Assembly: GCA_964509605.1 (NCBI GenBank)
Contig: CAZDXF010000002.1
Span: forward strand, 89,514 to 153,513
From: an uncultured Candidatus Saccharibacteria bacterium
GTDB taxonomy: Bacteria > Patescibacteriota > Minisyncoccia > Phycocordibacterales > Zambryskibacteraceae
Direction of reading: 5' to 3'
Length of the DNA stretch: 64,000 nt
Position numbers and translations under genes: made by a program. A model generated the notes under the pieces. That model ran no database searches, had not been told where the DNA came from, and saw only the letters and a program-made list of their open reading frames with translations. Positions 2,247 through 17,495 of the stretch are shown here, piece by piece (the stretch's first letter is position 1; the number at the start of each line of letters is the position of its first letter).

Positions 2247-2362
2247 AGGGGCGCAATCTTTTAAATTTTTGGTTAGTAAATACTCCTGTCACTTGATATT
2301 ATGTATTTGTGCCTATATATAGGAAAGTTAACAAGGACTTTTTTAAAGTATGGACGGCCGAA

Positions 2363-2971
2363 ATGGCTTACGTTTTAGGCTTCTTTGTTGCAGATGGAAA
2401 TATGATGGAGACAAATCGTGGAACATATTTTATTTCCTTTTATTCTGCAGATAGAGAGCTTATTCAGACAATCAAGAAGGCAATGGGTTCTGGGCATAAA
2501 ATTTCCGAAAGAAAAAGTGATATTGGTTCTGTATTTCGTATCCAAATAGGCAGTAAGGAAATATTTGAAGATTTTTTAAATTTAGGTCTGTGTCCGAGCA
2601 AGAGCCATCGTATTGAAATACCTAATGTTCCAAGAAAATTTGTGAAAGATTTTATTAGGGGGTATTTTGATGGAGATGGAAATGTTTGGGTTGGATATGT
2701 AAATAAGTATCGTAAAAAACCAACCCTTACAATACAAGTTTCTTTTACAAGTGTATCTTATGATTTCTTGTCTAATTTTCTGGGGCTTTTATGTTGTGGT
2801 GGAGTGAAGGGGGGTTACATTTATAGATCGAAAACAAAAAATTTTAGCAGGATATCTTTGAGTATTTTGGACTCTTTGAAACTTTATGAATTAATGTATA
2901 ATGTGCCTTGCCACTTGTTTTTAAAGAGGAAAAAGGTGGTTTTTGAAAAATTCATAAAAATGCGATCGTAG
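2363..2971 (+). CDS. LAGLIDADG-family homing endonuclease (double-motif)
   Basis: Two LAGLIDADG-type motifs: LGFFVADGN near the N-terminus and IRGYFDGDGNVWV mid-protein. Likely ATG start at 2363 (track start 2309 is an upstream GTG). TAG stop at 2969-2971 lies within positions 8-10 of the downstream tRNA. Confidence 0.8.
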   Translation: MAYVLGFFVADGNMMETNRGTYFISFYSADRELIQTIKKAMGSGHKISERKSDIGSVFRIQIGSKEIFEDFLNLGLCPSKSHRIEIPNVPRKFVKDFIRGYFDGDGNVWVGYVNKYRKKPTLTIQVSFTSVSYDFLSNFLGLLCCGGVKGGYIYRSKTKNFSRISLSILDSLKLYELMYNVPCHLFLKRKKVVFEKFIKMRS

Positions 2972-3243
2972 CTCAACTGGTTAGAGCACCCGCCTGTAGA
3001 TAATTGCAGCTTTTTATCGAAAGATAGATTGAAACTCTCTGGGATAACGGTGAAGGCTAAGTTTACCAATCGGTGAATATGCGAATACCGTGGGAACTCG
3101 TCATTATTAGACGAGAGCGCCGTAGAGACTAGATACCAGAGCGCCTAACAGGAAACTTAAGGTGAAGATATAGTCCACGCCATTATGAAAATAGTGGATC
3201 ACGTGCACGCGGGAGGTTGCCGGTTCAAGTCCGGTCGGTCGCG
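2962..3243 (+). tRNA. tRNA-Asp (anticodon GUC) interrupted by a 208-nt group I intron in the anticodon loop
   Basis: 5' exon GCGATCG-TA-GCTC-AACTGGTTA-GAGC-A-CCCGC-CTGT (2962-2997). 3' exon CAC-GCGGG-AGGTT-GCCGG-TTCAAGT-CCGGT-CGGTCGC-G (3206-3243). Spliced loop CTGTCAC gives anticodon GTC; G73 and G10 fit Asp identity; the G3:C70 pair argues against Ala. Confidence 0.8.
2998..3205 (+). ncRNA. Group I self-splicing intron (compact, tRNA-type; no internal ORF)
   Basis: 5' exon ends in U pairing with an IGS GCAG (P1); intron ends in G. R-like GAGACTAGA and exact S-element consensus AAGATATAGTCC form P7 (GACTA/TAGTC). A GAAA-tetraloop hairpin TATCGAAAGATA is present. Confidence 0.8.
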
Positions 3244-4845
3244 CATCAAGGGACGGAGTGAGGCGAAAGCTTCACTCTGTCTTTGTTTATCAAGGGTTTT
3301 TTCCAGTTCTAACCGTTTATATTCTTTTTCTATCGCTGGATAGTGATTTTGAATTGGAATAAACCATTCGTTAGGCAAAATAACGAGATTTCCGTCTTTT
3401 AGCGTGTAGTTCTGACCGAGTGCAGACAGTATCTCTCTTTTGGTCTCAAGACCGCCTTTACGGAACTCATTGAGAGCGTGGCAGGCAAAGATAAAGGTTT
3501 TCTCTGTGAGCTCAATCCAGTTCTCGGCTCTTTTCTCTGTGTCTCTCATTCTCTGGGATATTTCAGCCATCTGGCTTTGTAGTATTTTTCTTTCCTTCAA
3601 GAACTCCTCATCACTTATAAGCTCTCGGTATCTCATCTTGGTGAGGGTATCAAGCTGTTTTTGAGTATCAGCCAGTGTTTTGTGTTGGGTTTCGTATATA
3701 CGGGTCCTTTCCTCTATTTCCTTATCATTGTTTTTATTGAGTATCTCCAGAGCCCAGTCCTTGAATTGAGGAAGTATGGTTATTTTGGCAATCTCTTTTT
3801 CAATCTCTTCCTCAACTTTGCCTACAGGGACATATTTCTTCTGGGTGCATACGCAACCTTTCTTCCTTCTTGTGCAGTAGTAATACACGAAGGTTTTTAC
3901 TTCTCCTGTTTTCTTTATGATTTTTGTTTTCTCAATGGCTGTAATTGCACTCCCGCACTCGCCACACCTTATAATCCCAGTAAAAGGAAACTCGTGGGTC
4001 TTTGGTCTCGGCTTACCATCTCTACCAAGAAGCATTTGAACTCTGTCATACTCCTCAAGAGTAATCATTGGTTTGTGTTTACCTTGATATGTCCGTCCTC
4101 TGTATTGGAACAAGCCCGCATAGAATGGGTCTGTGAAGATGCGGTAAATAGTGCTTCTTGAAAGAGGTTTGCCACCCCTTCTTTTCATTTTCCTTGTTTG
4201 AAGACCCCACTCGTTAGTTGCGATTTCAAGTATTTTTGGAGGTGTATAGTTTCCAGTAAGCATAAGGTCCCACATCTTTCTGATGAGAGAAAATCTCTCT
4301 GGGTCATCTGTGATGTAGTTTTCTCCTCGGGCTTCTATTTTGGTATTCAAATATCCCAAAGGAGCTAAAATGGGAGCTTGTCCTTTCTCAAGCTTGCTAT
4401 CAATACCTCTTCGCACACCTTTCTTTAGGTCCAAGATAAACTGATTAGCAGAACCGCTCTCTACACTCAAAAGGAGAGCGTTGTCATCTGGTTTATATTC
4501 ACGATTGATTGTTCGGATAGATTTGATGATGCTTTGTTGTAGGAGCCATTGGATTTTTCCGCTATCAACTGGATTTCTGGATAAGCGGTTAATCTCCCAG
4601 CACAGGATGCCGTTCGCTTCTCCCGTCTCAATCCTCCTCAACATTTCATCAAAGATGGGTCGGTTATTTGGTTGCTTTGCAGATTTTGCCTCCGAAAGTA
4701 TTTCAACAATTTCCAGTCCAGCATCTTTGGCTAGTTTTGAAATATGATTTGTCTGGTCTCCTATGGATTGGACCTGTCTATCTTCGCTCTCTGATGATTT
4801 ACGAGCGTAGAGAAAGTATTTTATTGTTTCAGTGTCATTTTTCAT
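3199..4845 (-). CDS. Large serine recombinase (phage-type serine integrase)
   Basis: N-terminal resolvase catalytic domain (YARKSSESEDRQVQSIGDQ with catalytic Ser); recombinase domain; zinc ribbon CGECGS...C..C; C-terminal coiled coil. The last ~15 codons are antisense to the tRNA 3' exon. Confidence 0.85.
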   Translation of the reverse strand: MKNDTETIKYFLYARKSSESEDRQVQSIGDQTNHISKLAKDAGLEIVEILSEAKSAKQPNNRPIFDEMLRRIETGEANGILCWEINRLSRNPVDSGKIQWLLQQSIIKSIRTINREYKPDDNALLLSVESGSANQFILDLKKGVRRGIDSKLEKGQAPILAPLGYLNTKIEARGENYITDDPERFSLIRKMWDLMLTGNYTPPKILEIATNEWGLQTRKMKRRGGKPLSRSTIYRIFTDPFYAGLFQYRGRTYQGKHKPMITLEEYDRVQMLLGRDGKPRPKTHEFPFTGIIRCGECGSAITAIEKTKIIKKTGEVKTFVYYYCTRRKKGCVCTQKKYVPVGKVEEEIEKEIAKITILPQFKDWALEILNKNNDKEIEERTRIYETQHKTLADTQKQLDTLTKMRYRELISDEEFLKERKILQSQMAEISQRMRDTEKRAENWIELTEKTFIFACHALNEFRKGGLETKREILSALGQNYTLKDGNLVILPNEWFIPIQNHYPAIEKEYKRLELEKTLDKQRQSEAFASLRPLMRDRPDLNRQPPACT

Positions 4846-4984
4846 ATTAAAAACCCGAAAGGGACGGTCTGGTTGACCCAGATTACTTGCTCCAAAGGAG
4901 TAGCAATACTGGCAGACCGCCCCTCTCGGGTCAGTATTGTAATAAAAAATCCTTTGAACGCTTGTATCTGGGTCAACATAATCA

Positions 4985-5590
4985 TTATATCAATTTTTTA
5001 CGCTCAAGTTGAGTAAAGTGTCTATAAGATAAACTGGCTTGACCATATAGCTTATCAAGCTGTCTTTGTCTTCTGGTTGGCTTGCCTCTGTAATAAGGGC
5101 GTTTAATCTGGCTATTAAGCTCGTCAATTTTCTGCTCAAGAGTAAGAACATTAAATAAATGGAACATATTGTATCGGCGGTTCACATTTCTTGAGTTATA
5201 TGTGAGCTCGTAGCAATGGCGACAGGCAAAGTAATCTCCATCCTTGTAGAGAGTGCCTACTCGCTTGCCACAATATACGCCGTTTTTATACCACGGGCAG
5301 ATAAACCAGTATCGTTTGCCTCCGTATCGGCAAGGGGTAGAGGCGAGAGGTATCTTGTAGTCAAAGTTTTTCTTCTCGCCAGAGTAATTGTCTGTTTGGG
5401 TGTAATGGATACGGAGATAGTCATCACCATTCATTACAGACACCTCAATACCTACACTACTTTTGTTTTCACCCCACATACCGCTTCTGGTCCAAGTAAT
5501 CGTCCCAGACCTCCAGCCACAGAAGTAATCGTGCTTTTTGAGAAAGCTGGTGGCTATCTTTTTTACATCGTCTGCTTCGCTCTTGCTCAT
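4985..5590 (-). CDS. Hypothetical Cys-rich (putative zinc-binding) protein
   Basis: ORF of 201 aa with CxxC-like clusters (CPWYKNGVYCGK..CRHC); co-oriented with the integrase. Confidence 0.4.
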   Translation of the reverse strand: MSKSEADDVKKIATSFLKKHDYFCGWRSGTITWTRSGMWGENKSSVGIEVSVMNGDDYLRIHYTQTDNYSGEKKNFDYKIPLASTPCRYGGKRYWFICPWYKNGVYCGKRVGTLYKDGDYFACRHCYELTYNSRNVNRRYNMFHLFNVLTLEQKIDELNSQIKRPYYRGKPTRRQRQLDKLYGQASLSYRHFTQLERKKLI

Positions 5591-5716
5591 ATTCTTGCCG
5601 AAATCATTTGAGATTTACTCTTGTTATTTTTCTGGTAAAACGACCTTTTGTCTTTATGTTGCTTATTATTTTATCTATTCTGGCTCTTCCGATAAAATCC
5701 GATAACTTCTACAGTT

Positions 5717-6280
5717 TTACGAAACGAACCCATTTTCATTATCTATGGAGATGTCCGCATCTAATGCGAGGGGAGGTAAGACCTTCTCTCCATTTCTGGC
5801 TGACTGTAAACGCTGGAGCTCGTGTAGGGCTTTATACAACCTATTCTCAATCGCTATCTCATATCGCAAATATACGCTGGATAGCTTTTCCACCTCATCA
5901 TCGTGGATGCGTGGGATGTAGCCCTCATTTTCTACTATCGTTTCCGTTAAGCTTGGTAATAGTTCTTTGATTACTACCTTCCTGCGGTTAAGCTTGGACT
6001 GCATATACTCATTTTCTGCCTTTGCTACTCTGTGCAGTTTTAGGTAGTAAACTCCTATGCGGTCCACAAGCATCTTCTCCAACACTCCTACTGGGCTGAA
6101 ATGGTCATTGAGGCGTTCATTGATTTCCTTGTAGTAATCTCCTTCATATTCAGATACCAGTTCGTTCAGTATGCCGTGTTTGATGGCATTGTATTTGCTT
6201 ACAGCTTTACCTTCATCGGTTTTGACTCCGCCTTTTTTGGCGTTCTCTCGGTTAGCTTCAATCTGTTTTTGTGTTGTCAT
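5717..6280 (-). CDS. Hypothetical protein
   Basis: 187-aa ORF, co-directional, abuts the primase gene stop. Confidence 0.4.
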   Translation of the reverse strand: MTTQKQIEANRENAKKGGVKTDEGKAVSKYNAIKHGILNELVSEYEGDYYKEINERLNDHFSPVGVLEKMLVDRIGVYYLKLHRVAKAENEYMQSKLNRRKVVIKELLPSLTETIVENEGYIPRIHDDEVEKLSSVYLRYEIAIENRLYKALHELQRLQSARNGEKVLPPLALDADISIDNENGFVS

Positions 6281-6291
6281 ATTCTTATTTT

Positions 6292-8475
6292 TTAACTGTT
6301 ATTAAACTGTTTATCAGTATCATTTTCTTCCTCTGTGTTTTTCACCCCACTCTCTATTTCACTATTTTTATTGGTTTCAGAAAGCTGATATAGGGAGGAG
6401 GGGAAAATCATCATTTTGCGTTTGTCATTTGGGTCCTGTTCTTGAACGATAAGCCCTGCTGTCTCCAGCATAGGAAGTATCTGTTGTCGTAGCTGATGGC
6501 TATCAAGCATCCTTCCATACACCTCAAAATGTTTCTCAAGGAGCTCTTGGCGGGATAATCCAAGCTTGCCTGTAAGCTCTTCAAATACTTCGTTTCTGCC
6601 ATCATTCTTCGCCTCCCAAGCGGGTAGGATGACCTCTTTGTAGAGATTGTAGATGTAGGGTGGCAGGTTGAGCTCTTGGCTGACGGCTATCTTGTCCCAG
6701 AGCTTGAAAGCTTGATTGATGTCATCTTCATTGGCGATGATTGTGGACCCACTTCTTTCTCTCCACCAGACATTGAGAAGTGCAAACGATTTTATGAGAG
6801 ACAGAAGACGTTTGATGTCTCTTTGGTGTCTTGGTTTGAGCGTCTTGTTATTCCTCAAGAACCTTTCCTTGATTGTTTCGTGTGAGGCGATGTTTATATC
6901 TCTGATACCTTCCAGTTTGATGGCACGGATACGCTCTTTGAGTAGGGCTCGGTCTGGGTTTTCATCAAGCCAACTCACAAAACTCTCACTGTCTGCCTCT
7001 TTTCTGATTGTAGCGGTAATGCCTTGTTGTATTTTGTCTTGATTAACTTCTGGAGAAAGAAGTAAAAATCTCGTTGCTTCTTGCTCATCAATTTTTAGCC
7101 CTGCGGTGCAGAAGATGACCGATGGATAACCTCGCAAAAGAATGTTCTTTGTTTTCATCCCGAACTTCTGCGATTTATCAGTTATCTTCAAAGTAATCTC
7201 TTTCTTGTCGTGAGATAGGAGCGGTCTCAATCTGGCGAGGAGCTCATTGTGTGGCTGGTCCAGAAAGATAAGTATCTTGTGGGATAGGTCTACTAAGTAG
7301 CCATTCTTCTCTTTGTCGTATTGACCCGCATCGTGGAAGAAGGCGGTTGGAGAGCAGTAAGCAATCTCCATCACATCGTCTTGTGGGAATAGGCGGGCAA
7401 TCTCGGTTGGTATGTAGCTTTTACCTGTTGATGATGGGGCGTTGTAGCTGATGTTGAACTGCGAGTTCTCTGTATACGCTGATAGCTGACAGAGAAATGT
7501 CGCCAGCTTATTTTCTGCATCGTATTTAATGGTAAGACCGAGTGTCTCAATGAGTTTCTCGGAACTTATCGGAGCGAACTGGGCGGTATCAATTTTCTCT
7601 GGATACTCTTTTGCATATTTCTCAAACAAGTCATCAGCGGACCTTCCGAGTTTTATGATGTAATCGGTAATGTCTCCGTGTTCTCCAACTTCTTCTGGTA
7701 GCGTAATGATATAGGTCTCGTTTCCACCATTTTCCACCATTTTCGCCACACGCTCCGCTCCTTTCTTTCCAGCTTCGTCATTGTCAAAGCAGATGTAGAC
7801 CTTACTACCGTTCAGTATCTTTTTAACCCATTCTTCCTTGAAGGTCATCGCTCCGTGGGTAGAAGTGATTGCTGGCACTCCTTTAGCAAGTAGTAGTAAG
7901 CGGTCTAGCTCACCCTCACAGATTACGATTATTTTGTTCGCTTTTTCCGCAATCTCCCAATCATAGAGCTGTGCTTCTACTCCTTTCGGATAAGTTATTT
8001 TTTCATTGCCGAAAGCTGGGTCCTGTCGCAATTTGAAGAAGACATAATTGCCATAGACATCCTTAATAGGGATGGTAATCCACGGTTTGCGATAGAACTG
8101 TCCGTAGCCGATTTTGTATTCGTCTATCAGTGCATCAGTAAGTCCTCGTTTATGTAGATATTCTCTTATGCTTGGAGGTAGTGCTTTATGGCACTTCTCT
8201 ACAAGTTCTGCTGTAAATACATTTGTCTTGCGGGTTCTGGCTTCTGCTGTGTCGCCGAAATGTTTAGCTAATGTAGACAGGTTTCCTTTCTCTCCGCATT
8301 TCTTACAGTCATATTGTCCTGTCTCTGTGCTGAAATACAGGTGAGCTTCTTCGCCCTTACTATCCTTGTCGCAATCGTTGAAGAGGCATTTACTAATAAG
8401 CTCCTTACCACTCTCACGAAAGGGGATGCCTTTCTCGGTGAGATATTCTCGGATGTTAGTTTTAGTTAGGTTCAT
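6292..8475 (-). CDS. DNA primase-type replication protein (DnaG-like Zn finger + TOPRIM + P-loop NTPase)
   Basis: N-terminal CLFNDCDKDSKG..H..YDCKKCGEKG zinc-binding motif; TOPRIM IIVICEGELD...ICFDNDEAGKKG; Walker A APSSTGKSY. Confidence 0.75.
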   Translation of the reverse strand: MNLTKTNIREYLTEKGIPFRESGKELISKCLFNDCDKDSKGEEAHLYFSTETGQYDCKKCGEKGNLSTLAKHFGDTAEARTRKTNVFTAELVEKCHKALPPSIREYLHKRGLTDALIDEYKIGYGQFYRKPWITIPIKDVYGNYVFFKLRQDPAFGNEKITYPKGVEAQLYDWEIAEKANKIIVICEGELDRLLLLAKGVPAITSTHGAMTFKEEWVKKILNGSKVYICFDNDEAGKKGAERVAKMVENGGNETYIITLPEEVGEHGDITDYIIKLGRSADDLFEKYAKEYPEKIDTAQFAPISSEKLIETLGLTIKYDAENKLATFLCQLSAYTENSQFNISYNAPSSTGKSYIPTEIARLFPQDDVMEIAYCSPTAFFHDAGQYDKEKNGYLVDLSHKILIFLDQPHNELLARLRPLLSHDKKEITLKITDKSQKFGMKTKNILLRGYPSVIFCTAGLKIDEQEATRFLLLSPEVNQDKIQQGITATIRKEADSESFVSWLDENPDRALLKERIRAIKLEGIRDINIASHETIKERFLRNNKTLKPRHQRDIKRLLSLIKSFALLNVWWRERSGSTIIANEDDINQAFKLWDKIAVSQELNLPPYIYNLYKEVILPAWEAKNDGRNEVFEELTGKLGLSRQELLEKHFEVYGRMLDSHQLRQQILPMLETAGLIVQEQDPNDKRKMMIFPSSLYQLSETNKNSEIESGVKNTEEENDTDKQFNNS

Positions 8476-8677
8476 CTTGTTTAATGTTGTTTATAAGTTG
8501 TTGTTGGTCCTTTGAGATTTGCTCGTATTCTTTGTGGGTCATCGGCGTGTAGACGATAGACATCAACCGCAAGAGCTTGATGCCTTTGTCATAAGCATCT
8601 TCTCTGCTGATTTCTTTTCCAAAATGGCTCTTGTAGAGAGCTTGGAACTTTGCGATGTCTTCGTCTGCCAAAACCAT
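8462..8677 (-). CDS. Hypothetical small protein
   Basis: 71-aa ORF whose stop overlaps the primase start by 14 nt. Confidence 0.35.
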   Translation of the reverse strand: MVLADEDIAKFQALYKSHFGKEISREDAYDKGIKLLRLMSIVYTPMTHKEYEQISKDQQQLINNIKQDEPN

Positions 8678-8679
8678 AA

Positions 8680-9099
8680 CTATTCTGAATAGAGTTTATT
8701 TTTCAGTGCCTTGAGATGGTCAAAGAACGACCTTGCTTTGACTTCTAATCGGTCCGAGAAGTAGCGGTCTGCCACCTCTTCAATCCCATCTGCTTTCTGG
8801 AAGATAAAGAGGGCTTTTCTTGGGTTCTCTTTGTCCACGGATAAAAGCACAAAACCCGCACACAAAAGTGCGGTGGACACGCCGAGGTCATAGGTGGTCC
8901 ATACCACCGATGGGTCATCAAGTGGAATGTATCTCCACTCCTCGTCTCCAGATGACTTCCTTACTTTCTTATTTGTCATAGTAATTTGAGGTTTACTGAT
9001 AAACCAAAAAAGCCAACAAGTGTCGTCTTGTCGGCGTTGTGCGTTTGGAGATAAACAAAAAACCAAAGCAACAAACGCCAGTTCAAAACTGACATTCAT
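8680..9099 (-). CDS. Hypothetical protein with N-terminal hydrophobic/signal segment
   Basis: 139-aa ORF; MNVSFELAFVALVFCLSPNA signal-like start. Confidence 0.35.
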   Translation of the reverse strand: MNVSFELAFVALVFCLSPNAQRRQDDTCWLFWFISKPQITMTNKKVRKSSGDEEWRYIPLDDPSVVWTTYDLGVSTALLCAGFVLLSVDKENPRKALFIFQKADGIEEVADRYFSDRLEVKARSFFDHLKALKNKLYSE

Positions 9100-9260
9100 T
9101 GCTTTGGTCTCTTTAGTCGCCCATTAGACGGGCGAATTACCTATAAATCCTCTGCAAGTTTTTCCACCCACCATTCCCATAAAACGGGTATGCTTGGGTT
9201 TCAAAGATATTTAGCTTTCAAGGTGCATAGTAATTATAGGTGCTCTTGATTGCGTGTCAA

Positions 9261-10121
9261 CTACTTTGCTATCGTCTTGAAATCTACCCCTCCTTTCTGG
9301 GAGATGCTAAAAACATTTTTAGTTCTACATTTATGGCAAGTTTTATGTCCTCCTGCTTGAAATTCATCTAACAACTTCATAATTTCCTGTTCAGAAGTAT
9401 AAGTCCCAAGCCATCTACTACACTCTACACATCTCCAAATAAGCTCTTTTCTATCTTTTAATAAAGCTTTCACACCCTCTTCGTAGATTTCCTCTATCGT
9501 CTTTTTAACAGTATAGAAAATATCTTCCAACTTCTCTTTGTTGTTGATTACTATAAAGCTAGGAAAATAACCTCCTCCTGATGCATAAACCTCTCCGCTT
9601 TCATCCTTCTCAAAATCTACTTCAAGAGTTTCTTCAATCTGAATAGCTCCAGAAAAATCTGAAATTTTTCTTAAAATCTCATTACCGTATTTCTTTTCAT
9701 TAAATTTTTTAATATCGGCATTTCCTCCTGATATTAAGCTTCCTAAAATTTCTATAAGCTCCCTTCTGTATACTTCGTCTGAAAGCTTAAATCCATAGAG
9801 GTTATTTTTTGCGTCTGATATAAACCTGACTATCTCGCTTTTTTTCGGAGTTATATCAAAAAACTTTATCTTATCGTAGTCCTCACGGTGCGTGTCTTTC
9901 CAGTTCTCATATTCCAAAACCCCCTGCCTTTCCAAAGATAGAAATCCTTGAGCAATGTCAGATTTAGCCATCTCACCAAATAGTTTTGGAAGAAATTGGT
10001 CAGAGAGCGTGAGTGTCTCATTAGGTTCGGTGGGAAGGAAGATAACCAGATTAGGTCTTGTCTCTATAAACTCCAATATCTTTTCAGCCAGAAAGAGGTT
10101 TCTATTTTGAGTAATTGTCAT
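9261..10121 (-). CDS. Hypothetical protein with C-terminal zinc ribbon
   Basis: 286 aa; C-terminal CVECSRW...CHKCRTKN; divergent from the R-M operon. Confidence 0.4.
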   Translation of the reverse strand: MTITQNRNLFLAEKILEFIETRPNLVIFLPTEPNETLTLSDQFLPKLFGEMAKSDIAQGFLSLERQGVLEYENWKDTHREDYDKIKFFDITPKKSEIVRFISDAKNNLYGFKLSDEVYRRELIEILGSLISGGNADIKKFNEKKYGNEILRKISDFSGAIQIEETLEVDFEKDESGEVYASGGGYFPSFIVINNKEKLEDIFYTVKKTIEEIYEEGVKALLKDRKELIWRCVECSRWLGTYTSEQEIMKLLDEFQAGGHKTCHKCRTKNVFSISQKGGVDFKTIAK

Positions 10122-10289
10122 AGTAATTTTCTCAAATTTACCCCTTTTGATGACACTTCACAATAGTGAGTAGGAAGAGGGGCAAAAATACCTTAAATCT
10201 GCTATTCTTTCATAGTAAGAGAAAAGACCATTTACGAAGCCATTTTTAGGTAAATCGTGGATGTCTACTGCGGAAACATTACAATTACT

Positions 10290-12092
10290 ATGAAAAACGA
10301 ATATCAAAAAGTAGAACAAGCAAAAGGTCGTCCGCTTCTCCAGTGGGTAGGCAAGAAACCACTTGAGAGTGTGCAGTTCTATCCCGCCCAAGAAATTGAA
10401 GTATATGGCGACAAGACCGCAAAGGATTTCAATAAACTATTTTGGGGAGATAATCTCCAAGTGCTCTCTCATCTTCTCAAGGACTATCGTGGAAAAATTG
10501 ATTTGATATACATTGACCCTCCGTTTGATAGCAAGGCAGATTATGTAAAAAAAGTAAAAGTTCGTGGGGAGCAGGTTGAAGGCATTGGACAAGGTCTACT
10601 TGAGGAAAAACAATACTCTGACATTTGGGAGAGAGATGAATACCTCCAATTTATGTATGAGCGATTATCGCTAATGAGGGAACTTTTATCTGAAACAGGC
10701 AGTGTCTATGTTCATATGGACGAGAAACGCTCCCACTATGTGAAAATCATCCTTGATGAAGTATTTGGTATTGAGAACTTCCAAAGAGAGATTGTGTGGG
10801 ATATTACAGTTTTGTCTGGTTTTAAGACGCAGGCAAATAACTGGATACGAGGACACGACACGATACTTTTTTACTCAAAATCACCTAACAAAAACTTCAA
10901 TAAACTATTTCTTCCACACCGAAAAGAGTATTTGGACCGTTTTAACAAAAAAGATAAAGATGGACGGCTCTACTTTGATGGACGAGGAGAAATTGTGTAT
11001 TTGGATGATGTCGTAAAAAAAGGTAAAAACATTGGAGATGTATGGAGTGATGTTATGTCCTTCCAACAAATACCCACTGCAAAAGAAAGAGTTGATTATC
11101 CTACTCAAAAACCTGAAGCTTTGCTTGAACGCATCATCAATGCTTCGTCAAAGGAGGGTGATATTGTTGCAGATTTTTTCTGTGGTTCTGGAACTACTCA
11201 AGTGGTGGCTCAAAAGCTCGGACGAAGATGGATTGGGTGCGACATAAACAAGGGAGCCATTCAGACATCTACAAAGCGTCTCAATCAAATCATTGAGGAA
11301 CAGCAGAGAGAGAAAATAAAGAACTTCAAGGGTTCTTACGGCTTCAAGGTTCTCAATGTGAACGATTATGATGTGTTCAAGAATGAGCTTATTGCGAAGG
11401 ATATTGTTATGGAGATGTATGGAGTGGAGCAAATAAAGCGAAGCTACTTTGACGGGCTGATGGGTAGAGATTTGGTGAAGATAATGCCGATGAACAGAGT
11501 GCTCAACAAAATGGATATAAGGAGTATCTTGAAAAACATCCAAGACAACATAAGCAACTTCACTGTGAAGACGAAATCAAAAGCGAAGGAAGCCGTATAC
11601 GAAGAGAAAGTCCGCATTATCTGTTCTGGAGTTGAATATGATGTCCCTCACTTCTTGAGAAAGGAAAATAAAACTGGAGTAGTGGTGGAAATCAACGATG
11701 TGCTCTCTGCTACGAAGGAACTTGTTTTCAAGGAATACCCAGAGTCAAAAATTGAGCTCAAGGTTAAGAATAAGAAGCTCTCTGTTGATATAAAAGAGTT
11801 CTACTCTCCGCTTCTGATGAGAAAGCTTGAGATTGAAAACCAGAAGGCGCTTAAAAAAGAAAGCCAGACGAAGGTAAAGGACTTCAAGCAAATCATTGAT
11901 AGCGTAGCTATTGATGTGGACTACAACGGCAAGCTGTTCAACGCAGAGATAATGGACCTGCCAGACAAGAAGGAGGTTATCAAAGCCAAGTATTCTTGGG
12001 ATTATCCAAAGAAGGGCAAATATACTGTCGCCATAAAAATTGTTGATGTGCTCGGAGAAGAATACTTTGAGACATTTGATGTAAACGCATAA
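10290..12092 (+). CDS. Type III restriction-modification methyltransferase (Mod), beta-class N6A/N4C MTase
   Basis: Motif IV IDLIYIDPPFDS precedes motif I DIVADFFCGSGTT (beta-class order). Likely ATG at 10290 (track start 10257 is GTG). Immediately followed by a Res-like gene. Confidence 0.8.
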   Translation: MKNEYQKVEQAKGRPLLQWVGKKPLESVQFYPAQEIEVYGDKTAKDFNKLFWGDNLQVLSHLLKDYRGKIDLIYIDPPFDSKADYVKKVKVRGEQVEGIGQGLLEEKQYSDIWERDEYLQFMYERLSLMRELLSETGSVYVHMDEKRSHYVKIILDEVFGIENFQREIVWDITVLSGFKTQANNWIRGHDTILFYSKSPNKNFNKLFLPHRKEYLDRFNKKDKDGRLYFDGRGEIVYLDDVVKKGKNIGDVWSDVMSFQQIPTAKERVDYPTQKPEALLERIINASSKEGDIVADFFCGSGTTQVVAQKLGRRWIGCDINKGAIQTSTKRLNQIIEEQQREKIKNFKGSYGFKVLNVNDYDVFKNELIAKDIVMEMYGVEQIKRSYFDGLMGRDLVKIMPMNRVLNKMDIRSILKNIQDNISNFTVKTKSKAKEAVYEEKVRIICSGVEYDVPHFLRKENKTGVVVEINDVLSATKELVFKEYPESKIELKVKNKKLSVDIKEFYSPLLMRKLEIENQKALKKESQTKVKDFKQIIDSVAIDVDYNGKLFNAEIMDLPDKKEVIKAKYSWDYPKKGKYTVAIKIVDVLGEEYFETFDVNA

Positions 12093-12096
12093 TCAT

Positions 12097-14640
12097 ATGG
12101 ATAGTTTTTTCTTACAAAATATCCAGAAACAAGTAGCTGACTGGCGAGCTGGTGGCTACGATGGCGTGCAGAAAGAGACAGAGACGATACTAAACCACAT
12201 CCGAAGGGTTGCTTTCTTGCACGAGCCACAGATAGAGGCGTTGGAGACATACATCTACCTCAAAGAGATAGTTGGCAACAAGCCATCCGTTGAGGTGTTC
12301 AAGAAGTCCTTTGAAAGTGAGTTGGATTTTATCCGTGCTCTGGGTCTTTCTGATAAAGAGGCGTTTGAACTTGCTTACGATAAAAAGAAGGACGAAAAGA
12401 TACAAGCAATTCTGGATGAGAAGTTCGGGACCTCCGACTATGCAAATCAGGTCTACGCTCTCACTATGGGTTCGGGCAAAACGATTTTGATGGCGGTGAT
12501 GATGCTGTATGATTTTGTTCTTTCCTTCTATCACAAAGATGACGAACGCTTTGCCAAGAACGCCCTTATTTTTGCTCCAGATACAACAATCATAGAGAGC
12601 TTGAAAGAGATAAAGACATTTGATTACTCACGGGTTCTGCCGAGAGAGTATGAGAACATCATTTTGAATATAAAGTATCACTATCTTGAAAGCACAGACA
12701 CCGCTCTGGCTCCAGTCGGAAACTATAATGTCATTGTCTCTAACTCACAGAAAATAATCCTCAAGACAAGAAATGGTAATGGCGATAATCATTCAGCACG
12801 GCTTTTTGGAGACAGAAATGAGATGGAGAAACGAGAGGTTGAAAATATGCGTTTGCAAGCCATTCGCCAACTCTCATCTCTCCAGATTTTTGTAGATGAA
12901 GCTCACCACTCATATGGAAAGACACTTGAGGGAACTTTGAAGAAGACGAGACAAACGATTGATTATCTTCACAAGCATACTCCTCTTGTTTCCGTTATAA
13001 ACCTCACTGGAACGCCTTATGTAAACAATAAGATGATTTCCGATGTGGTCTATCACTTCGGTCTTAAAGCAGGTATTGAAAAAGGTATTTTGAAGCAGGT
13101 CCGCATTTTGGATTATGGAACAGTAAGGTCCCAGAAGTTCGTTGAGGAAGTCGTTGATACCTTCATTTCTGAATACGGGACGAAACGGCTTGAAGGGCGA
13201 TTGCCGAAGATAGCTTTCTATGCACCAAGCATTAGTGATTTGCGAGAGGATTTGAAGCCGAAGCTGGAGCGTATCCTTTCTGAAAAAGGTATGTCTACAC
13301 AATCCATTTTGGAGTATCACACCGAAGCAGAAGATAATGCCGATGATTTCAAACAGCTTGATACAGCCGAAAGCAAAAAGCAGTTTATTCTTCTTGTCGG
13401 CAAAGGGACCGAAGGATGGAACTGCCGTTCTCTTGTCTCTGTGGCTCTGTATAGGAAGCCAAAGAGCACAATCCTTGTCCTACAATCAACTACAAGATGT
13501 CTGCGTGCCATTGGAGATAACTCCACTCGTGCCAGCATCTTCTTATCAAAAGACAATTATAAAATCCTTGATAAAGAGCTCAAGAATAACTTTGCCTCAA
13601 GCATCAGTGAGCTGAATGCTCAAGACCAGAAAATGGTTGAACACACTCTTGAGGTTGAGAAGCGGACTACCATCAAAGTAAAGAAGGTTCTCAAGGATAT
13701 TTTGGCTGTTAAGGAAACAAGCCCAGAGAAAATAAAAATTGATTTCAAGAAGTTTGATGCTGGACAGTATCAATCATTTGTAAGTGAGGGAGGTGTATTT
13801 ATCGGAGACGAAGGTAAGGCAAGATATTCAGAAGCTCGTGCTAAAGGAAGAATAAAAGATAGAGCAGATTTTACCTTTTATGAAATAGCCGAAATAATAA
13901 ACCGCTATACTCATCTACCTTGTTTATCCATAGAAGCTATTATCACTGGGAGTGGAAAGAAGCGTGAGCAATTTGTTGAGATGGTAAACGAGACCCCAGC
14001 TCTGCTTACATTTGTTATTCAAGAAATACTCAACAGTGCTTTCAAATATGAAGAGAAGACCGAAACAGTGGAAGAAGAGCTTGAGCTGACTAAACTGTTT
14101 CCATTCAAAATCAGTGTTCAGCAAGGCAGAAGTGGACTTGTAGTATATAGAGAAGCCGAAGCAGAAGAAGGGCGAAAGGGTCGTCTTGGTTTCCACATCA
14201 ATCCATACGCATTTGATAGCGGTGATGAGAAGGATTTGTTCAGATACTTGAGGGATGTTCTTGATAAGAAGGAGGTTATCAAGGATATTTATTTCACAGG
14301 TGCTCGTGTTTGCTCGGACCCAAGCAGAACTGATTTCTATTTTGAATACTGGAGCCCAGAACAAAACAGAGTAGCCAGATACTTTCCAGATTTTCTTATT
14401 GAGACAAACAAACGCTTTATTGTTGTAGAGACAAAGGGTGGAGATGAGAAAGCGGATTATGAGGCAAATAAGAAATCATATAAGGGTAAAGTGGAAGATG
14501 TAAGAAATGAAGTGTTTGCGAAAGAGCTTGGATTTAACGAGTTTCAGAGCATAAATAAAAACTTTGAGTATCGCATTATCTTTGATGCTACTCTCCAGCG
14601 AGAACAGGTGAGATTGTATGAGGAGCTAATAAATAGATAA
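12097..14640 (+). CDS. Type III restriction enzyme (Res): SF2 helicase + C-terminal PD-(D/E)xK nuclease
   Basis: Walker A TMGSGKT, DEAH box FVDEAHHS, motif LTGTPY; C-terminal YFPDFLIETNKRFIVVETKG nuclease motif. Confidence 0.8.
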   Translation: MDSFFLQNIQKQVADWRAGGYDGVQKETETILNHIRRVAFLHEPQIEALETYIYLKEIVGNKPSVEVFKKSFESELDFIRALGLSDKEAFELAYDKKKDEKIQAILDEKFGTSDYANQVYALTMGSGKTILMAVMMLYDFVLSFYHKDDERFAKNALIFAPDTTIIESLKEIKTFDYSRVLPREYENIILNIKYHYLESTDTALAPVGNYNVIVSNSQKIILKTRNGNGDNHSARLFGDRNEMEKREVENMRLQAIRQLSSLQIFVDEAHHSYGKTLEGTLKKTRQTIDYLHKHTPLVSVINLTGTPYVNNKMISDVVYHFGLKAGIEKGILKQVRILDYGTVRSQKFVEEVVDTFISEYGTKRLEGRLPKIAFYAPSISDLREDLKPKLERILSEKGMSTQSILEYHTEAEDNADDFKQLDTAESKKQFILLVGKGTEGWNCRSLVSVALYRKPKSTILVLQSTTRCLRAIGDNSTRASIFLSKDNYKILDKELKNNFASSISELNAQDQKMVEHTLEVEKRTTIKVKKVLKDILAVKETSPEKIKIDFKKFDAGQYQSFVSEGGVFIGDEGKARYSEARAKGRIKDRADFTFYEIAEIINRYTHLPCLSIEAIITGSGKKREQFVEMVNETPALLTFVIQEILNSAFKYEEKTETVEEELELTKLFPFKISVQQGRSGLVVYREAEAEEGRKGRLGFHINPYAFDSGDEKDLFRYLRDVLDKKEVIKDIYFTGARVCSDPSRTDFYFEYWSPEQNRVARYFPDFLIETNKRFIVVETKGGDEKADYEANKKSYKGKVEDVRNEVFAKELGFNEFQSINKNFEYRIIFDATLQREQVRLYEELINR

Positions 14641-14644
14641 AGCT

Positions 14645-15469
14645 ATGGACGAGGAAAAGAAAATAACTAAAAAGAAGGCAGTCATTTATACCATTGTAAT
14701 TGGGGTTGTCGCTTTTATAGCTGGAACTTTTATCGTGGATTACTCGGAATACGAAGAATACGGCTCTTATAGCACTGACAACTGCAATGTTTTAGCTTTT
14801 TCTGTAAACGGCTACTTAAGCACTTATATGCCACAGAACCCAGAAGAGTATATGACAGACATTTCTTCATCAGAGGATATTGTGGATGGCATACAAATTG
14901 CACAAGATGACCCAGATATAAAAGCAGTCATATTATCAGTGGACTCTGGTGGAGGAGATGGTGTTGCTGGAGAAGAGGTTGCTAATGCATTGAAATGGTT
15001 GAGTAAACCCAGTGTCGCAGTGATAAGAGGGTTAGGTGCTTCCTCGGCATATTGGGCATCTACTGGAGCTGACAAGATATACGCATCCAAGATATCCGAT
15101 GTCGGAAGTATCGCTATCACAATGTCTTATCTTGATGAGACAAAAAAGATAGAGCGTGAGGGTTATCAATACACAGAACTGTCATCGGCAAAGTATAAGG
15201 ATTTAGGAGACCCAAGCAGACCTCTAACTGCCGAAGAGAGAGCGATAATAATGTCTGATTTGCAGAAGGCACACAAAGTTTTTGTTGAAAGTGTTTCTGT
15301 AAACAGAGGTTTGGATATAAAAGAGATTGAAAAATTGGCAAACGGGCTGACCTATATAGGCGAAGATGCTTTGAGATATGGGTTGATTGATGAGATTGGA
15401 GATTTTCTATCTGCTAAAAAGTATATTGAGGAGCAAATAGGAGAAAAAGCAGAGATTTGCTGGTATTGA
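14645..15469 (+). CDS. S49-family serine peptidase (SppA/ClpP-like), membrane-anchored
   Basis: N-terminal TM helix; AVILSVDSGGGDGVAGEEVANAL and GLIDEIGDF S49 hallmarks; starts 4 nt after Res stop. Confidence 0.7.
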   Translation: MDEEKKITKKKAVIYTIVIGVVAFIAGTFIVDYSEYEEYGSYSTDNCNVLAFSVNGYLSTYMPQNPEEYMTDISSSEDIVDGIQIAQDDPDIKAVILSVDSGGGDGVAGEEVANALKWLSKPSVAVIRGLGASSAYWASTGADKIYASKISDVGSIAITMSYLDETKKIEREGYQYTELSSAKYKDLGDPSRPLTAEERAIIMSDLQKAHKVFVESVSVNRGLDIKEIEKLANGLTYIGEDALRYGLIDEIGDFLSAKKYIEEQIGEKAEICWY

Positions 15470-15990
15470 TAAACACAATGACAAAACTTTACATACTAAT
15501 TGGAATACTTATTGCTCTCGGGGTTGTAATTGAACTCTTTAGGAGCGGAGGCAAAGAAGAGAGAAGGTATCAATATAAGCAGAAGAACTTTTTTATGTCT
15601 CGGGCAGAGCACGAGTGCTACGATGCCCTTACTATTGCCGTTGGAGAGAAGTATCACATCTTTCCTCAAGTTCATCTGCCGTCAATCGTAGACAATAAGG
15701 TTGTGGGTCAAAATTGGCACGGAGCCTTCCGCCACATAAGCCAGAAGTCGGTTGATTTCGTTTTGTGCGACAAAGCTTACATATCACCGAAACTTGCTAT
15801 TGAGCTTGATGATAGAACTCACGAAAGAAGGGACCGAAAGGAAAGGGATGTTGAGGTTGAGAGGGTCCTAAAGGATGCTGAACTACCTCTTTTGAGATTG
15901 GAAAATCACGGACGATTTAACCCCAGCGAGCTTACTGAAAAAATAAATACCATCCTAAACAATGGTGAAAACAAGGGTGGGGTGAAATAA
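15457..15990 (+). CDS. DUF2726/DUF559-like (Vsr/PD-(D/E)xK-fold) domain protein with N-terminal TM helix
   Basis: Motif pattern VDFVLCD...AIELDDRTH typical of the DUF2726/Vsr-like fold; overlaps the S49 gene by 13 nt. Confidence 0.55.
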   Translation: MLVLINTMTKLYILIGILIALGVVIELFRSGGKEERRYQYKQKNFFMSRAEHECYDALTIAVGEKYHIFPQVHLPSIVDNKVVGQNWHGAFRHISQKSVDFVLCDKAYISPKLAIELDDRTHERRDRKERDVEVERVLKDAELPLLRLENHGRFNPSELTEKINTILNNGENKGGVK

Positions 15991-15992
15991 AG

Positions 15993-16184
15993 ATGGTTCA
16001 TATAAACCCAGAGACAGTTCAAGAGTTCAAACAAACAATTAAAGAGGAGTATGGAGTTGAGTATTCTGATAAGGAAGCTTGGGAAGCTATGCACAACCTT
16101 GTCGGATTTTTTGACCTACTTTTGAAAATGGATAGGAGACAAAACCCAGAGCTTTATAAAAGAAAAGATACTAAAGATGGATGA
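15993..16184 (+). CDS. Hypothetical small acidic protein
   Basis: 63-aa ORF packed between neighbours (2-nt gap upstream, 8-nt overlap downstream). Confidence 0.35.
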   Translation: MVHINPETVQEFKQTIKEEYGVEYSDKEAWEAMHNLVGFFDLLLKMDRRQNPELYKRKDTKDG

Positions 16185-16968
16185 TTATCTCGTTATATAC
16201 ACAGATGGCTCTTCTGCTCCAAAACCAAGACGGGGTGGAGTTGGTTTCAGAATGATTTTCCCAAGTGGAAAAGTTAGGGATTTTTCTCCGTATGGATATT
16301 CTGGAGCGACTAATAATGAGATGGAGTTGCAAGCGTGCATACTGTCTTTAAGAGAGGTGGTAAAACTTGATGATTTGGAAGGAGCAAAGGGTGTCGTTGT
16401 ATGCACTGACTCTCAATATGTTGTTAGCAACTATAAAAACGCAATGTTTTCTTGGGTAAATCAGAAATGGATGAGAAGCAATGGAGAGCCCGTATTAAAT
16501 GCACAGCAGTGGAAAGAGCTTTTGAGATTGATGAAGCGTATAGGAGACCGTTTTCGCATTTATGTCTCTTTTGAAAAAGTAGAAGCCCATTCGGGAGTTG
16601 AGGATAATGAAGCGGTAGACAAGCTTGCCAAGCGTTCTCGCAAGGGTCCATTATCTACAATTAAAATATCGGTGAGCAATGTTCGCAGAAGTAAAACAAA
16701 AAGTAAAACTATAAAAGGTAGTATTAGGGGAGAAGGTCAACGGCTTCGTATTCGTGTCGTAAGCGGGAGTTGGTTGAGTGTGCAAAAATTGTATCGCTTG
16801 AGGTGTGAGGTGCTTTCAAAGAAAAGTGAATATTTCAGTAAAATGGATTTTATTCTTTCAGAGGAGATGATGAGAGCTGGTCATATTTATGATGTTGTCT
16901 TGATGGACGGGCTGGACCATTGCCGTGTAAAAAAGTTAATAGGCGAAGTTAAAACCCCTACTAAATAG
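16177..16968 (+). CDS. rnhA: Ribonuclease HI domain fused to a ~110-aa basic C-terminal domain of unknown function
   Basis: RNase H catalytic residues in YTDGS, NNEMELQA, CTDSQYV and EAHSGVEDNEAVDKLA; the C-terminal half is Lys/Arg-rich with no recognisable domain. Confidence 0.7.
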   Translation: MDDYLVIYTDGSSAPKPRRGGVGFRMIFPSGKVRDFSPYGYSGATNNEMELQACILSLREVVKLDDLEGAKGVVVCTDSQYVVSNYKNAMFSWVNQKWMRSNGEPVLNAQQWKELLRLMKRIGDRFRIYVSFEKVEAHSGVEDNEAVDKLAKRSRKGPLSTIKISVSNVRRSKTKSKTIKGSIRGEGQRLRIRVVSGSWLSVQKLYRLRCEVLSKKSEYFSKMDFILSEEMMRAGHIYDVVLMDGLDHCRVKKLIGEVKTPTK

Positions 16969-17053
16969 TGAAATCAAAGGTGGGTATATAGATGGTTGTA
17001 TCATTTCCTCTCTCAAATCCAGTTCTGATGTTGTTCACTAGCCCGCGCAAGCG

Positions 17054-17091
17054 AAAATCCGAGTATCGTGTGATACTCGGATTTTTGTTTT
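17054..17091 (+). terminator. Rho-independent terminator
   Basis: AATCCGAGTATC-GTGT-GATACTCGGATT followed by TTTGTTTT. Confidence 0.7.
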
Positions 17092-17239: not shown

Positions 17240-17495
17240 GCCAATGTAGCTCAGTTGGTAGAGCACCCCCATGGTGGATCGTATGATTCTGCCCAGCCAA
17301 GAGGCAACTTTTGGATGAATCCCGAATAACGGTTAAAGTCCTATTAAGATGGATCAGACCGTGGCGCCAAGGCGCCCGAACGACTGACAAGGGTTCGCCC
17401 AGCGCGAAAAGATACAGTCTAGTCTTCTCATATAAAGAAAAGAGAAGTGTAAACGAAGGGGGAGGTCATCGGTTCAATCCCGATCATTGGCTCCA
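17240..17495 (+). tRNA. tRNA-Thr (anticodon GGU) interrupted by a 180-nt group I intron; CCA encoded
   Basis: 5' exon GCCAATG-TA-GCTC-AGTTGGTA-GAGC-A-CCCCC-ATGGT. 3' exon AA-GGGGG-AGGTC-ATCGG-TTCAATC-CCGAT-CATTGGC-T-CCA. Spliced anticodon loop ATGGTAA. Confidence 0.75.
17276..17455 (+). ncRNA. Group I intron (very compact, 180 nt), homologous to the intron at 2998..3205
   Basis: Exon-terminal U pairs with an IGS GCCA. P7 pairing GACTG/CAGTC within R-like cgACTGAcaa and S-like AAGATACAGTCT. Shares the ATAACGGT.AA motif with the first intron. GGCGCC-AA-GGCGCC hairpin. Ends in G. Confidence 0.65.

Follow-up and report, generated by a model that had tools for sequence, protein, structure and literature searches.

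A tRNA-Asp(GUC) gene split by an ORF-less group I intron beside a LAGLIDADG endonuclease gene in a Patescibacteria genome

Introduction

Group I introns inserted between positions 35 and 36 of the tRNA-Asn, tRNA-Asp and tRNA-Tyr genes of Patescibacteria have been described by Nakagawa, Amikura, Omae and Suzuki (bioRxiv 10.1101/2025.07.03.662931; mSystems 2026, PMC13011429). One tRNA-Asn and one tRNA-Asp intron showed precise guanosine-dependent self-splicing in vitro with an omega-G-to-C control, and the intron of GCA_001029755.1 spliced itself exactly at 35/36. Three tRNA-Asp cases were found in 95 complete genomes, and such tRNAs were misannotated as tRNA-Ala or tRNA-Thr by ARAGORN and tFind (PMC13011429). 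Earlier, Williams (2020; bioRxiv 10.1101/2020.01.27.920355) had raised the number of known intron-split tRNA types to 21 cases, and its type 'Asn.4Ug', cited by Nakagawa et al., equals position 35/36 by its numbering (PMC13011429). Here we analyzed a 64-kb stretch of contig CAZDXF010000002.1 (the window). We are highly confident that the tRNA-Asp(GUC) gene at 2962-3243 of the window is split between U35 and C36 by a 208-nucleotide (nt) group I intron without an open reading frame (ORF).

The locus has in common with the published family the tRNA-Asp(GUC) host, the 35/36 site, the phylum, a 5' exon that ends with CUGU, and the ORF-less intron, as well as the ambiguity with an Ala 33/34 call in ARAGORN and tFind. 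It differs from the published entries in lying in a different genome. Its nearest relative found is locus L027 (loci are numbered with an L throughout), which is in a Zambryskibacteria metagenome-assembled genome (MAG) and 94% identical over the precursor. The 35/36 insertion in tRNA-Asp of Patescibacteria is therefore already known, and the window holds a further member.

Results

The split tRNA-Asp gene

The first-pass annotation of this DNA had proposed two halves of a canonical tRNA separated by 208 nt, and ARAGORN agreed with it on both the joined and the unjoined sequence. The exons 2962-2997 and 3206-3243, when joined, formed a canonical 74-nt cloverleaf called as tRNA-Asp(gtc). With its intron search switched on, ARAGORN reported tRNA-Asp i(37,208) at 2962-3244 in the window, and it detected no further tRNA-Asp within the 64 kb. 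The default ARAGORN run, which allows no introns, gave nothing at this locus in the whole window.

By direct reading, the 5' exon ends with CTGT and the 3' exon begins with CAC, in agreement with the loop CTGTCAC and the anticodon GUC given earlier. The Asp identity set of E. coli comprises G73, G10, G34 U35 C36 and C38. All of these nucleotides, including the G73 and G10 noted in the first-pass annotation, are present in the joined exons, while positions 2:71 are C-G in the window and G-C in E. coli. The CCA end is not encoded in the 3' exon.

The splice junction was fixed by an intronless allele, since the tRNA-Asp gene that L220 has in synteny at 4673-4747 lacks the intron and each of its halves matches the corresponding window exon with 100% identity. 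The locus occupies a conserved tRNA-Met/tRNA-Asp/tRNA-Thr position at which relatives keep a tRNA-Asp gene. The loci nearest to that of the window were all from Zambryskibacteria, Paceibacteria and Parcubacteria MAGs, and the host is a Patescibacteria genome (Paceibacteria/Zambryskibacteria-like).

A promoter-like TTGAAA-15 nt-TATAAT (Table 1) is kept in L027, in which the body of the endonuclease gene described below is gone, and it is a plausible promoter of the tRNA gene judging from its sequence. Around the tRNA, the consensus promoter and terminator scan yielded no useful prediction; this motif was not called, as the scan needs a spacer of 16-18 nt. Just 3' of the tRNA (3250-3290, + strand) there is a GC-rich hairpin, GGGACGGAGUGAGGCGAAAGCUUCACUCUGUCUU, with UUGUUU after it. 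It resembles a terminator and falls within the 3' end of a minus-strand recombinase ORF. The scan made no consensus terminator call at this hairpin, and the only Rfam match there was a spurious weak one to group II D5.

Detection and fold of the intron

The intron starts with AGAT and its last nucleotide is G3205. When 2900-3300 (401 nt) was searched in E-value mode, RF00028 (Intron_gpI) matched with 47.2 bits and E = 4.3e-11 from end to end (model positions 1-253). The curated gathering score of this family is 50 bits, and for this reason the gathering-threshold Rfam scan of the whole window did not report the intron. The Rfam check proposed in the first-pass annotation thus gave a match by E-value and none at the gathering score, and at default settings it comes close to the absence of a covariance-model hit that the annotation had named as refuting it. 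Nakagawa et al. and Williams apply cut-offs for bacterial tRNA introns that are lower than the Rfam gathering score (PMC13011429; bioRxiv 10.1101/2020.01.27.920355).

A P1-P9 model was drawn with the Rfam alignment as a guide and evaluated on an alignment of 59 sequences (A2), consisting of 58 distinct tRNA-Asp introns from the pattern-scan loci and the metagenome scan described below, and the window copy. Standard pairs filled 91.1% of the cells, compared with 37-43% when the 3' partners were slid by 1-3 columns. Compensatory changes occurred at 43 of the 68 pairs, and none of 500 shuffles equalled the observed values. With this covariation and the E-value of the RF00028 match, a chance resemblance can be set aside. 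Covariation was found in P2, P3, P4, P5a, P6a, P8 and P9, and a core with P3-P7, which the first-pass annotation had wanted checked by folding, is supported by it. RNAalifold recovered every nested helix (P1-P6, P8, P9 and P9.0) with no structure supplied, and these helices also appeared in the minimum free energy fold of the window intron by itself (z = -2.6). At each position of the model the window copy shows a standard pair, with no helix pair broken, and it retains all positions that are invariant among the 59 homologues.

The predicted pairing of the exon-terminal U with an intron GCAG was recovered in P1, where GCAG 3006-3009 pairs with CUGU 2994-2997 and the wobble is U2997.G3006. The pairs U.G, G-C, U-A and C-G were each present in 59 of the 59 sequences, and covariation was also seen at the first intron pair of this helix (A-U 51, C-G 4, G-C 3). 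All six pairs of P2 showed compensatory changes, and the P2 loops across homologues mostly contain GAAA. In P3, 98% of the cells were paired and five of the six pairs had compensatory changes. P6a varies in length, and RNAalifold gives it a better register. A receptor-like motif, GCUAAG/UAUGC, is present in P5; this motif and the CCUAA.../UAUGG of P8 resemble the classical GAAA-tetraloop receptor.

The R-like and S elements recognized earlier (GAGACTAGA at 3125-3133 and AAGATATAGTCC at 3165-3176) do form P7 (3125-3131 with 3171-3176), which consists of G3125-C3176 and of 3127-3131 paired with 3171-3175. P7 was paired in 99.4% of the cells, is nearly invariant and matches the RF00028 core alignment; G3125-C3176, the bulged A3126 and G3127-C3175 were found in 58-59 of the 59 sequences. 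As in other group I introns, P7 is presumed to be the guanosine-binding helix. The J7/3 segment has only 4 nt (GAUA in 58 of 59) and therefore leaves no room for P7.1 or P7.2. At the 3' end, the middle pair of P9.0 covaries (C-G 39, U-A 12, U-G 8), L9 is GAAA in 57 of 59 sequences, and the intron-terminal G that had been annotated proved to be invariant (Table 1). Covariance models placed the published 35/36 introns in subgroup IA (PMC13011429), while the modelled window fold, with its 4-nt J7/3, the absence of P7.1 and P7.2 and two pairs of GAAA loops and receptor-like motifs, looks like a compact IC3-type architecture.

According to this model, the exons and the intron would be transcribed as a single precursor RNA, and the intron would fold into a P1-P9 core in which CUGU and the guide UUGCAG set U2997.G3006 at the 5' splice site. 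A free guanosine in P7 would attack the 5' splice site, and G3205, positioned by P9.0, would then take the place of the guanosine in P7. Ligation of the exons would yield the loop CUGUCAC, with the junction CCTGT/CACGCGGG at the DNA level (the slash marks the junction). The receptor-like motifs of P5 and P8 would probably serve as docking sites for the GAAA loop of L9 and the GAAA-type loop of L2.

Table 1. Coordinates of the split tRNA-Asp gene, its intron and other features (window positions)
Feature	Position	Strand	Evidence and remarks
LAGLIDADG endonuclease gene, free-standing, two motifs, 220 amino acids (aa), GTG start	2309..2971	+	Pfam LAGLIDADG_3, 2.3e-13
Promoter-like TTGAAA-15 nt-TATAAT	2905..2931	+	Direct reading, inferred; inside 3' end of LAGLIDADG gene, 30 nt upstream of tRNA
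tRNA-Asp 5' exon	2962..2997	+	Acceptor 5' strand, D arm, anticodon stem 5' strand, C32 U33 G34 U35; GCGATCGTAGCTCAACTGGTTAGAGCACCCGCCTGT
P1	2994..3009	+	CUGU + intron AG (2994-2999) with UUGCAG (3004-3009); 5' splice site U2997.G3006
Group I intron (208 nt) at tRNA position 35/36	2998..3205	+	RF00028, covariation, homology; no ORF
P2 hairpin	3013..3028	+	3013-3018 with 3023-3028; GAAA loop 3019-3022
P3 5' strand	3037..3042	+	Pairs with 3136-3141
P4, P5, P5a	3047..3091	+	P4 3047-3052/3086-3091; P5 3056-3057/3081-3082; P5a 3061-3067/3072-3078
P6 and P6a	3092..3121	+	P6 3092-3093/3120-3121; P6a hairpin 3097-3102/3110-3115
P7 5' strand	3125..3131	+	A3126 bulged; within R-like GAGACUAGA; pairs with 3171-3176
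P3 3' strand	3136..3141	+	P3 and P7 form the core pseudoknot
P8	3142..3164	+	3142-3145/3161-3164; inner 3150-3151/3156-3157; CCUAA...UA(U/A)GG receptor-like motif
J8/7 and P7 3' strand	3165..3176	+	S element AAGAUAUAGUCC
P9.0 and P9	3177..3204	+	P9.0 3177-3179/3202-3204 encloses P9 3180-3186/3191-3197; loop GAAA 3187-3190
Large serine recombinase	3199..4845	-	Last codons read through tRNA-Asp 3' exon
Omega-G	3205..3205	+	Invariant G before CAC in 59/59; set by intronless L220 allele and P9.0
tRNA-Asp 3' exon	3206..3243	+	C36 A37 C38, anticodon stem 3' strand, variable loop, T arm, acceptor 3' strand, G73; CACGCGGGAGGTTGCCGGTTCAAGTCCGGTCGGTCGCG
Toprim primase-like protein	6292..8475		
tRNA-Thr(GGU), split, 180-nt insert at 36/37	17240..17495	+	ARAGORN with intron search

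Relatives of the intron and their hosts

Over the aligned columns, the window intron was 80% identical to the tRNA-Asp intron of GCA_023898525.1 (Paceibacteria), and it was 63% identical to the intron of GCA_001029755.1 (both Table S3, PMC13011429). A pattern scan with the two P7 strands, in which one genome per species was used, identified at least 120 loci, nearly all of them in Patescibacteria MAGs. Among the 120 loci listed, the hosts were tRNA-Asp (47), tRNA-Tyr (19), tRNA-Asn (16), tRNA-Leu (2), tRNA-Met (2) and tRNA-Val (1), with 34 left without a host call. The single Val(33/34) call, L031, was spurious and is tRNA-Asp by inspection. At least 10 of the 34 loci, inspected by eye, were also tRNA-Asp, most of them with an odd T loop. 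Intron-split tRNA-Asp was thus found in at least 47 species-level genomes among the matches listed. Together with the published 35/36 family, this makes the kind of intron a known one and the host a common one, and the earlier statement that a tRNA-Asp host would be unusual in a genome of the candidate phyla radiation (CPR) type is outdated (PMC13011429).

The frequent hosts among the listed loci, Asp GUC, Asn GUU and Tyr GUA, all have GUN anticodons, and their common 5' exon end C32-U33-G34-U35 pairs with the guide GCAG. This common exon end may explain why one intron lineage occurs in three tRNAs at the same site.

In L002, L007, L019, L025, L031, L041, L103 and L115, the T arm is unusual and reads GUGGG-GUCAGCA-CCCAU instead of having a GUUCAAAU-type T loop. 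The ARAGORN intron search misses these split tRNA-Asp genes, most of which were called as tRNA-Asp after removal of the intron.

The window tRNA-Asp is missed by default tRNA finders and by the Rfam gathering threshold. Unless an intron-aware search is used, the genome appears to have no tRNA-Asp, and estimates of genome completeness suffer accordingly; the same point was made for the published family (PMC13011429).

The adjacent LAGLIDADG gene

A free-standing LAGLIDADG gene runs into the tRNA-Asp gene (Table 1), and its stop codon TAG coincides with tRNA positions U8-A9-G10. Both catalytic Asp residues are invariant in an alignment of 20 of these proteins, whose relatives in the PDB include 2dch, I-HjeMI and I-AniI. 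Full-length homologues were located directly upstream of split tRNA-Asp genes at 22 loci, 21 of them intact, in the sample of listed loci selected for the intron. Remnants were detected with an nhmmer model of the last 140 nt of the gene. Of the 43 intron-bearing tRNA-Asp loci listed, 21 had the full gene, about 19 a remnant and 3 neither, so that about 40 of the 43 carried the gene or a remnant. None of the 35 listed Asn and Tyr intron loci has the LAGLIDADG gene.

A metagenome scan with the LAGLIDADG protein alignment gave more than 556 relatives, from which 80 loci were kept. In about 72 of these 80, tRNA-Asp came directly after the gene; about 57 of these tRNA-Asp genes were intronless and about 15 were split. 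Overall, hundreds of Patescibacteria contigs have a member of this gene family immediately in front of tRNA-Asp, with or without the intron in the tRNA. The anticodon arms of the intronless genes were identical to those of the intron-bearing alleles. As the gene lies in cis beside intact intronless tRNA-Asp, the intron site is not the target of the enzyme, and the candidate role of an endonuclease directed at the intron insertion site was rejected on this indirect test. In our reading, the endonuclease gene can be without the intron, and the intron is nearly always found where the gene is or was. A description of the association of this LAGLIDADG gene with tRNA-Asp was not found in the searchable literature, and its association with intron-bearing tRNA-Asp is apparently new.

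No intronless tRNA-Asp occurred among the 120 listed loci, which had been selected for the intron. To counter this ascertainment bias, a sample was therefore drawn by synteny via the neighbouring gene at 1118-1774 of the window; it comprised nine usable species-level loci, in which the order is LigA-GatC-GatA-X-tRNA-Met-tRNA-Met-tRNA-Asp. Endonuclease gene and intron were both present in two of these loci; in the other seven both were absent and no remnant was left. L220, the closest genome found (80.5% nucleotide identity over 2.3 kb of flanking genes), has neither element, and its exons are identical. Compared with L220, the window has two insertions 36 nt apart, namely the endonuclease segment (2236-2960) and the intron. 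In L027 (about 70% identity in the flanking genes), the identity rises to 92% over 2862-3244, a stretch that spans the 3' end of the gene, the tRNA and the intron, and the body of the endonuclease gene is lost.

Other elements at tRNA genes

The split tRNA-Thr(GGU) gene of the window carries an insert with R/S-like elements (ACGACUGA; AAGAUACAGUC). On this insert RF00028 found nothing even when E-values as high as 10 were allowed. The insert probably belongs to the 'divergent group I introns' described for tRNA-Thr (PMC13011429). The same tRNA-Thr is intronless in L027 and intron-bearing in L220.

The region between tRNA-Asp and tRNA-Thr (~3245-17087, about 13.8 kb) is absent from L220 and L027. 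In addition to the recombinase and the primase-like protein (Table 1), it encodes a DUF5659 protein, an N6/N4 DNA methylase, a ResIII helicase, an S49 peptidase, a DUF2726 protein and an RNase H, and it is probably an island integrated at the 3' end of tRNA-Asp. A repeat of the tRNA-Asp 3' end that could delimit the island was sought and none was found within the window; its limits were taken from the comparison with L220. Related recombinases adjoin intron-split tRNAs in L116 and L008.

A 41-nt direct repeat (2057-2097 and 2207-2247) consists of the last 18 nt of tRNA-Met and 23 nt downstream. The two copies bracket about 109 nt of GC-rich sequence, an arrangement that is kept in L220 and suggests the trace left by a small element on insertion at the 3' end of a tRNA gene. 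Similar duplicated tRNA-Asp 3' ends were observed after the gene in L002, L025, L083, L087 and L103.

A conserved ORF of about 200 aa adjoins most intron-split tRNA-Tyr(GUA) genes. It is usually located upstream (L015, L028, L040, L045, L049, L056, L057, L061, L066, L076 and L109), in L107 downstream, and in L065 upstream of tRNA-Asn. The protein has an N-terminal helix-turn-helix and a ...LMLYxGEGAK... motif. This family had no Pfam match and no profile similarity to the LAGLIDADG family associated with tRNA-Asp, and its match to the I-DmoI profile was weak (E 0.013). The family may represent another endonuclease-like neighbour of a 35/36 intron. An HNH-like ORF was found upstream of some tRNA-Asn loci, and small GIY-YIG ORFs beside the tRNA in L006 and L202.

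Discussion

The identification of 2962-3243 as a tRNA-Asp(GUC) gene with a group I intron at 35/36 is carried by the sequence, by the fold and its conservation, by the exon junction and by the homology to published introns. The sequence features of the first-pass annotation were all confirmed at the coordinates it gave, and its structural identification proved right in each detail. Several points weigh against the identification. The Rfam score is 2.8 bits under the gathering threshold, and the Rfam alignment stops at G3197 after P9, missing the true 3' end because the short P9.0 directly precedes G3205. A convincing P10 cannot be drawn, and the P8 receptor motif of the window copy is a variant, CCUAAC...UAAGG, where homologues typically have CCUAA.../UAUGG. 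Self-splicing of the window copy is predicted from a homologous intron for which it has been shown in vitro, and a second intact tRNA-Asp gene may lie outside the visible 64 kb.

Some of these points would also suit a decayed relic intron in a tRNA pseudogene, with a functional tRNA-Asp elsewhere: the score below the gathering threshold, the variant P8 receptor and the restriction of the visible sequence to 64 kb of the genome. We regard such decay as very improbable, however, since no core pair of the window copy is broken, the positions invariant in 59 homologues are all kept, the gene sits at the conserved tRNA-Met/tRNA-Asp/tRNA-Thr position and the window contains no other tRNA-Asp. In addition, it is rare for a genome to have one tRNA in both an intron-bearing and an intronless copy (PMC13011429).

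A dependence of splicing on the adjacent LAGLIDADG protein as a maturase, in place of purely autocatalytic splicing, is judged to be as improbable as decay. LAGLIDADG maturases such as I-AniI exist, I-AniI is among the PDB matches of this protein, the gene terminates inside the tRNA gene, and the gene or its remnant occurs at about 40 of 43 intron-bearing tRNA-Asp loci. However, about half of the intron-bearing loci have only a remnant or nothing, the same gene adjoins about 57 intronless tRNA-Asp genes, and both catalytic Asp residues are invariant, as in active nucleases. Moreover, a related intron splices in vitro free of protein (PMC13011429).

The least probable alternative, to which we attach practically no weight, is a tRNA-Ala(UGC) host with the intron shifted by two bases to 33/34 (...CCU/GUAG...CACG/UGCAC...). 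ARAGORN and tFind do give this call for some relatives, but sequencing in vitro of a relative led to 35/36 (PMC13011429). U2995 and G3203 would also provide the U before the intron and the G at its end, and with this shift, too, a cloverleaf is obtained. This shift was nevertheless rejected, as the intronless L220 allele reads CCTGTCACGCGGG and not CTTGCAC, about 12 homologues end with ...AUG/CAC and lack the G needed for it, the invariant wobble is U2997.G3006 while U2995 pairs with A3008, and P9.0 terminates directly before G3205. Direct reading also gives G3-C70 in the acceptor stem, where tRNA-Ala has G3.U70.

With the intron at 35/36 of tRNA-Asp, its association with the endonuclease gene could be explained by hitch-hiking, in which the ORF-less intron would spread as a passenger of the LAGLIDADG gene by co-conversion. 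The gene abuts the tRNA and lies 36 nt upstream of the insertion site. The enzyme would cut naive alleles near the 5' end of tRNA-Asp, and repair templated by the donor would co-convert the endonuclease gene and the nearby intron. The endonuclease gene would then decay to a 3' remnant bearing the promoter, which would survive because TTGAAA-15-TATAAT would serve as the tRNA promoter, whereas the intron, being hard to delete precisely, would stay. The share of the 43 loci with the gene or a remnant, the joint presence or absence in the sample of nine loci, the lack of both elements in L220 despite its identical exons, and the 92% identity of the more distant L027 over this stretch speak for it. 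We put this forward tentatively and consider it, on balance, somewhat doubtful. Vertical co-inheritance of intron and endonuclease gene with repeated loss, a stronger constraint on the stretch from the 3' end of the gene through the tRNA to the intron, and a sampling bias behind the association are still viable explanations. The 35/36 introns have been judged to be little mobile as they are without endonuclease genes (PMC13011429), a conclusion that would need revision if intron and gene travel jointly. The locus would then also offer a case, on a bacterial chromosome, in which intron and endonuclease gene associate before they fuse.

Among the introns of other bacteria, those of the Azoarcus tRNA-Ile and the cyanobacterial tRNA-Leu(UAA), which are of subgroup IC3, offer a comparison. 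Like the window intron they are ORF-less, about 200 nt long and inserted in the anticodon loop of a bacterial tRNA, with a GUAGAGACUAGA-type P7 strand and a compact P2-P9, and in all of them the fold is apparently stabilized by L2-P8 and L9-P5 tetraloop-receptor contacts. The insertion site differs (35/36 in the window, 34/35 in tRNA-Leu and 36/37 in tRNA-Ile and tRNA-Arg), and so do the host tRNA and the phylum.

The arrangement of intron and endonuclease gene recalls the collaborative homing of phages, in which an ORF-less group I intron reportedly cooperates with a neighbouring free-standing homing endonuclease gene (Bonocora & Shub; Zeng, Bonocora & Shub, 2009). In both cases, no more than about 40 nt separate an ORF-less intron from a free-standing gene of the homing endonuclease type, and intron and endonuclease gene are jointly present or absent among close relatives. 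The phage enzyme, however, is reported to cut the intron site of intronless alleles, a target that is excluded here by the approximately 57 intronless loci. Any link between gene and intron in the window would have to act via co-conversion started by cleavage at another place, probably the 5' end of the tRNA or the junction upstream of it.

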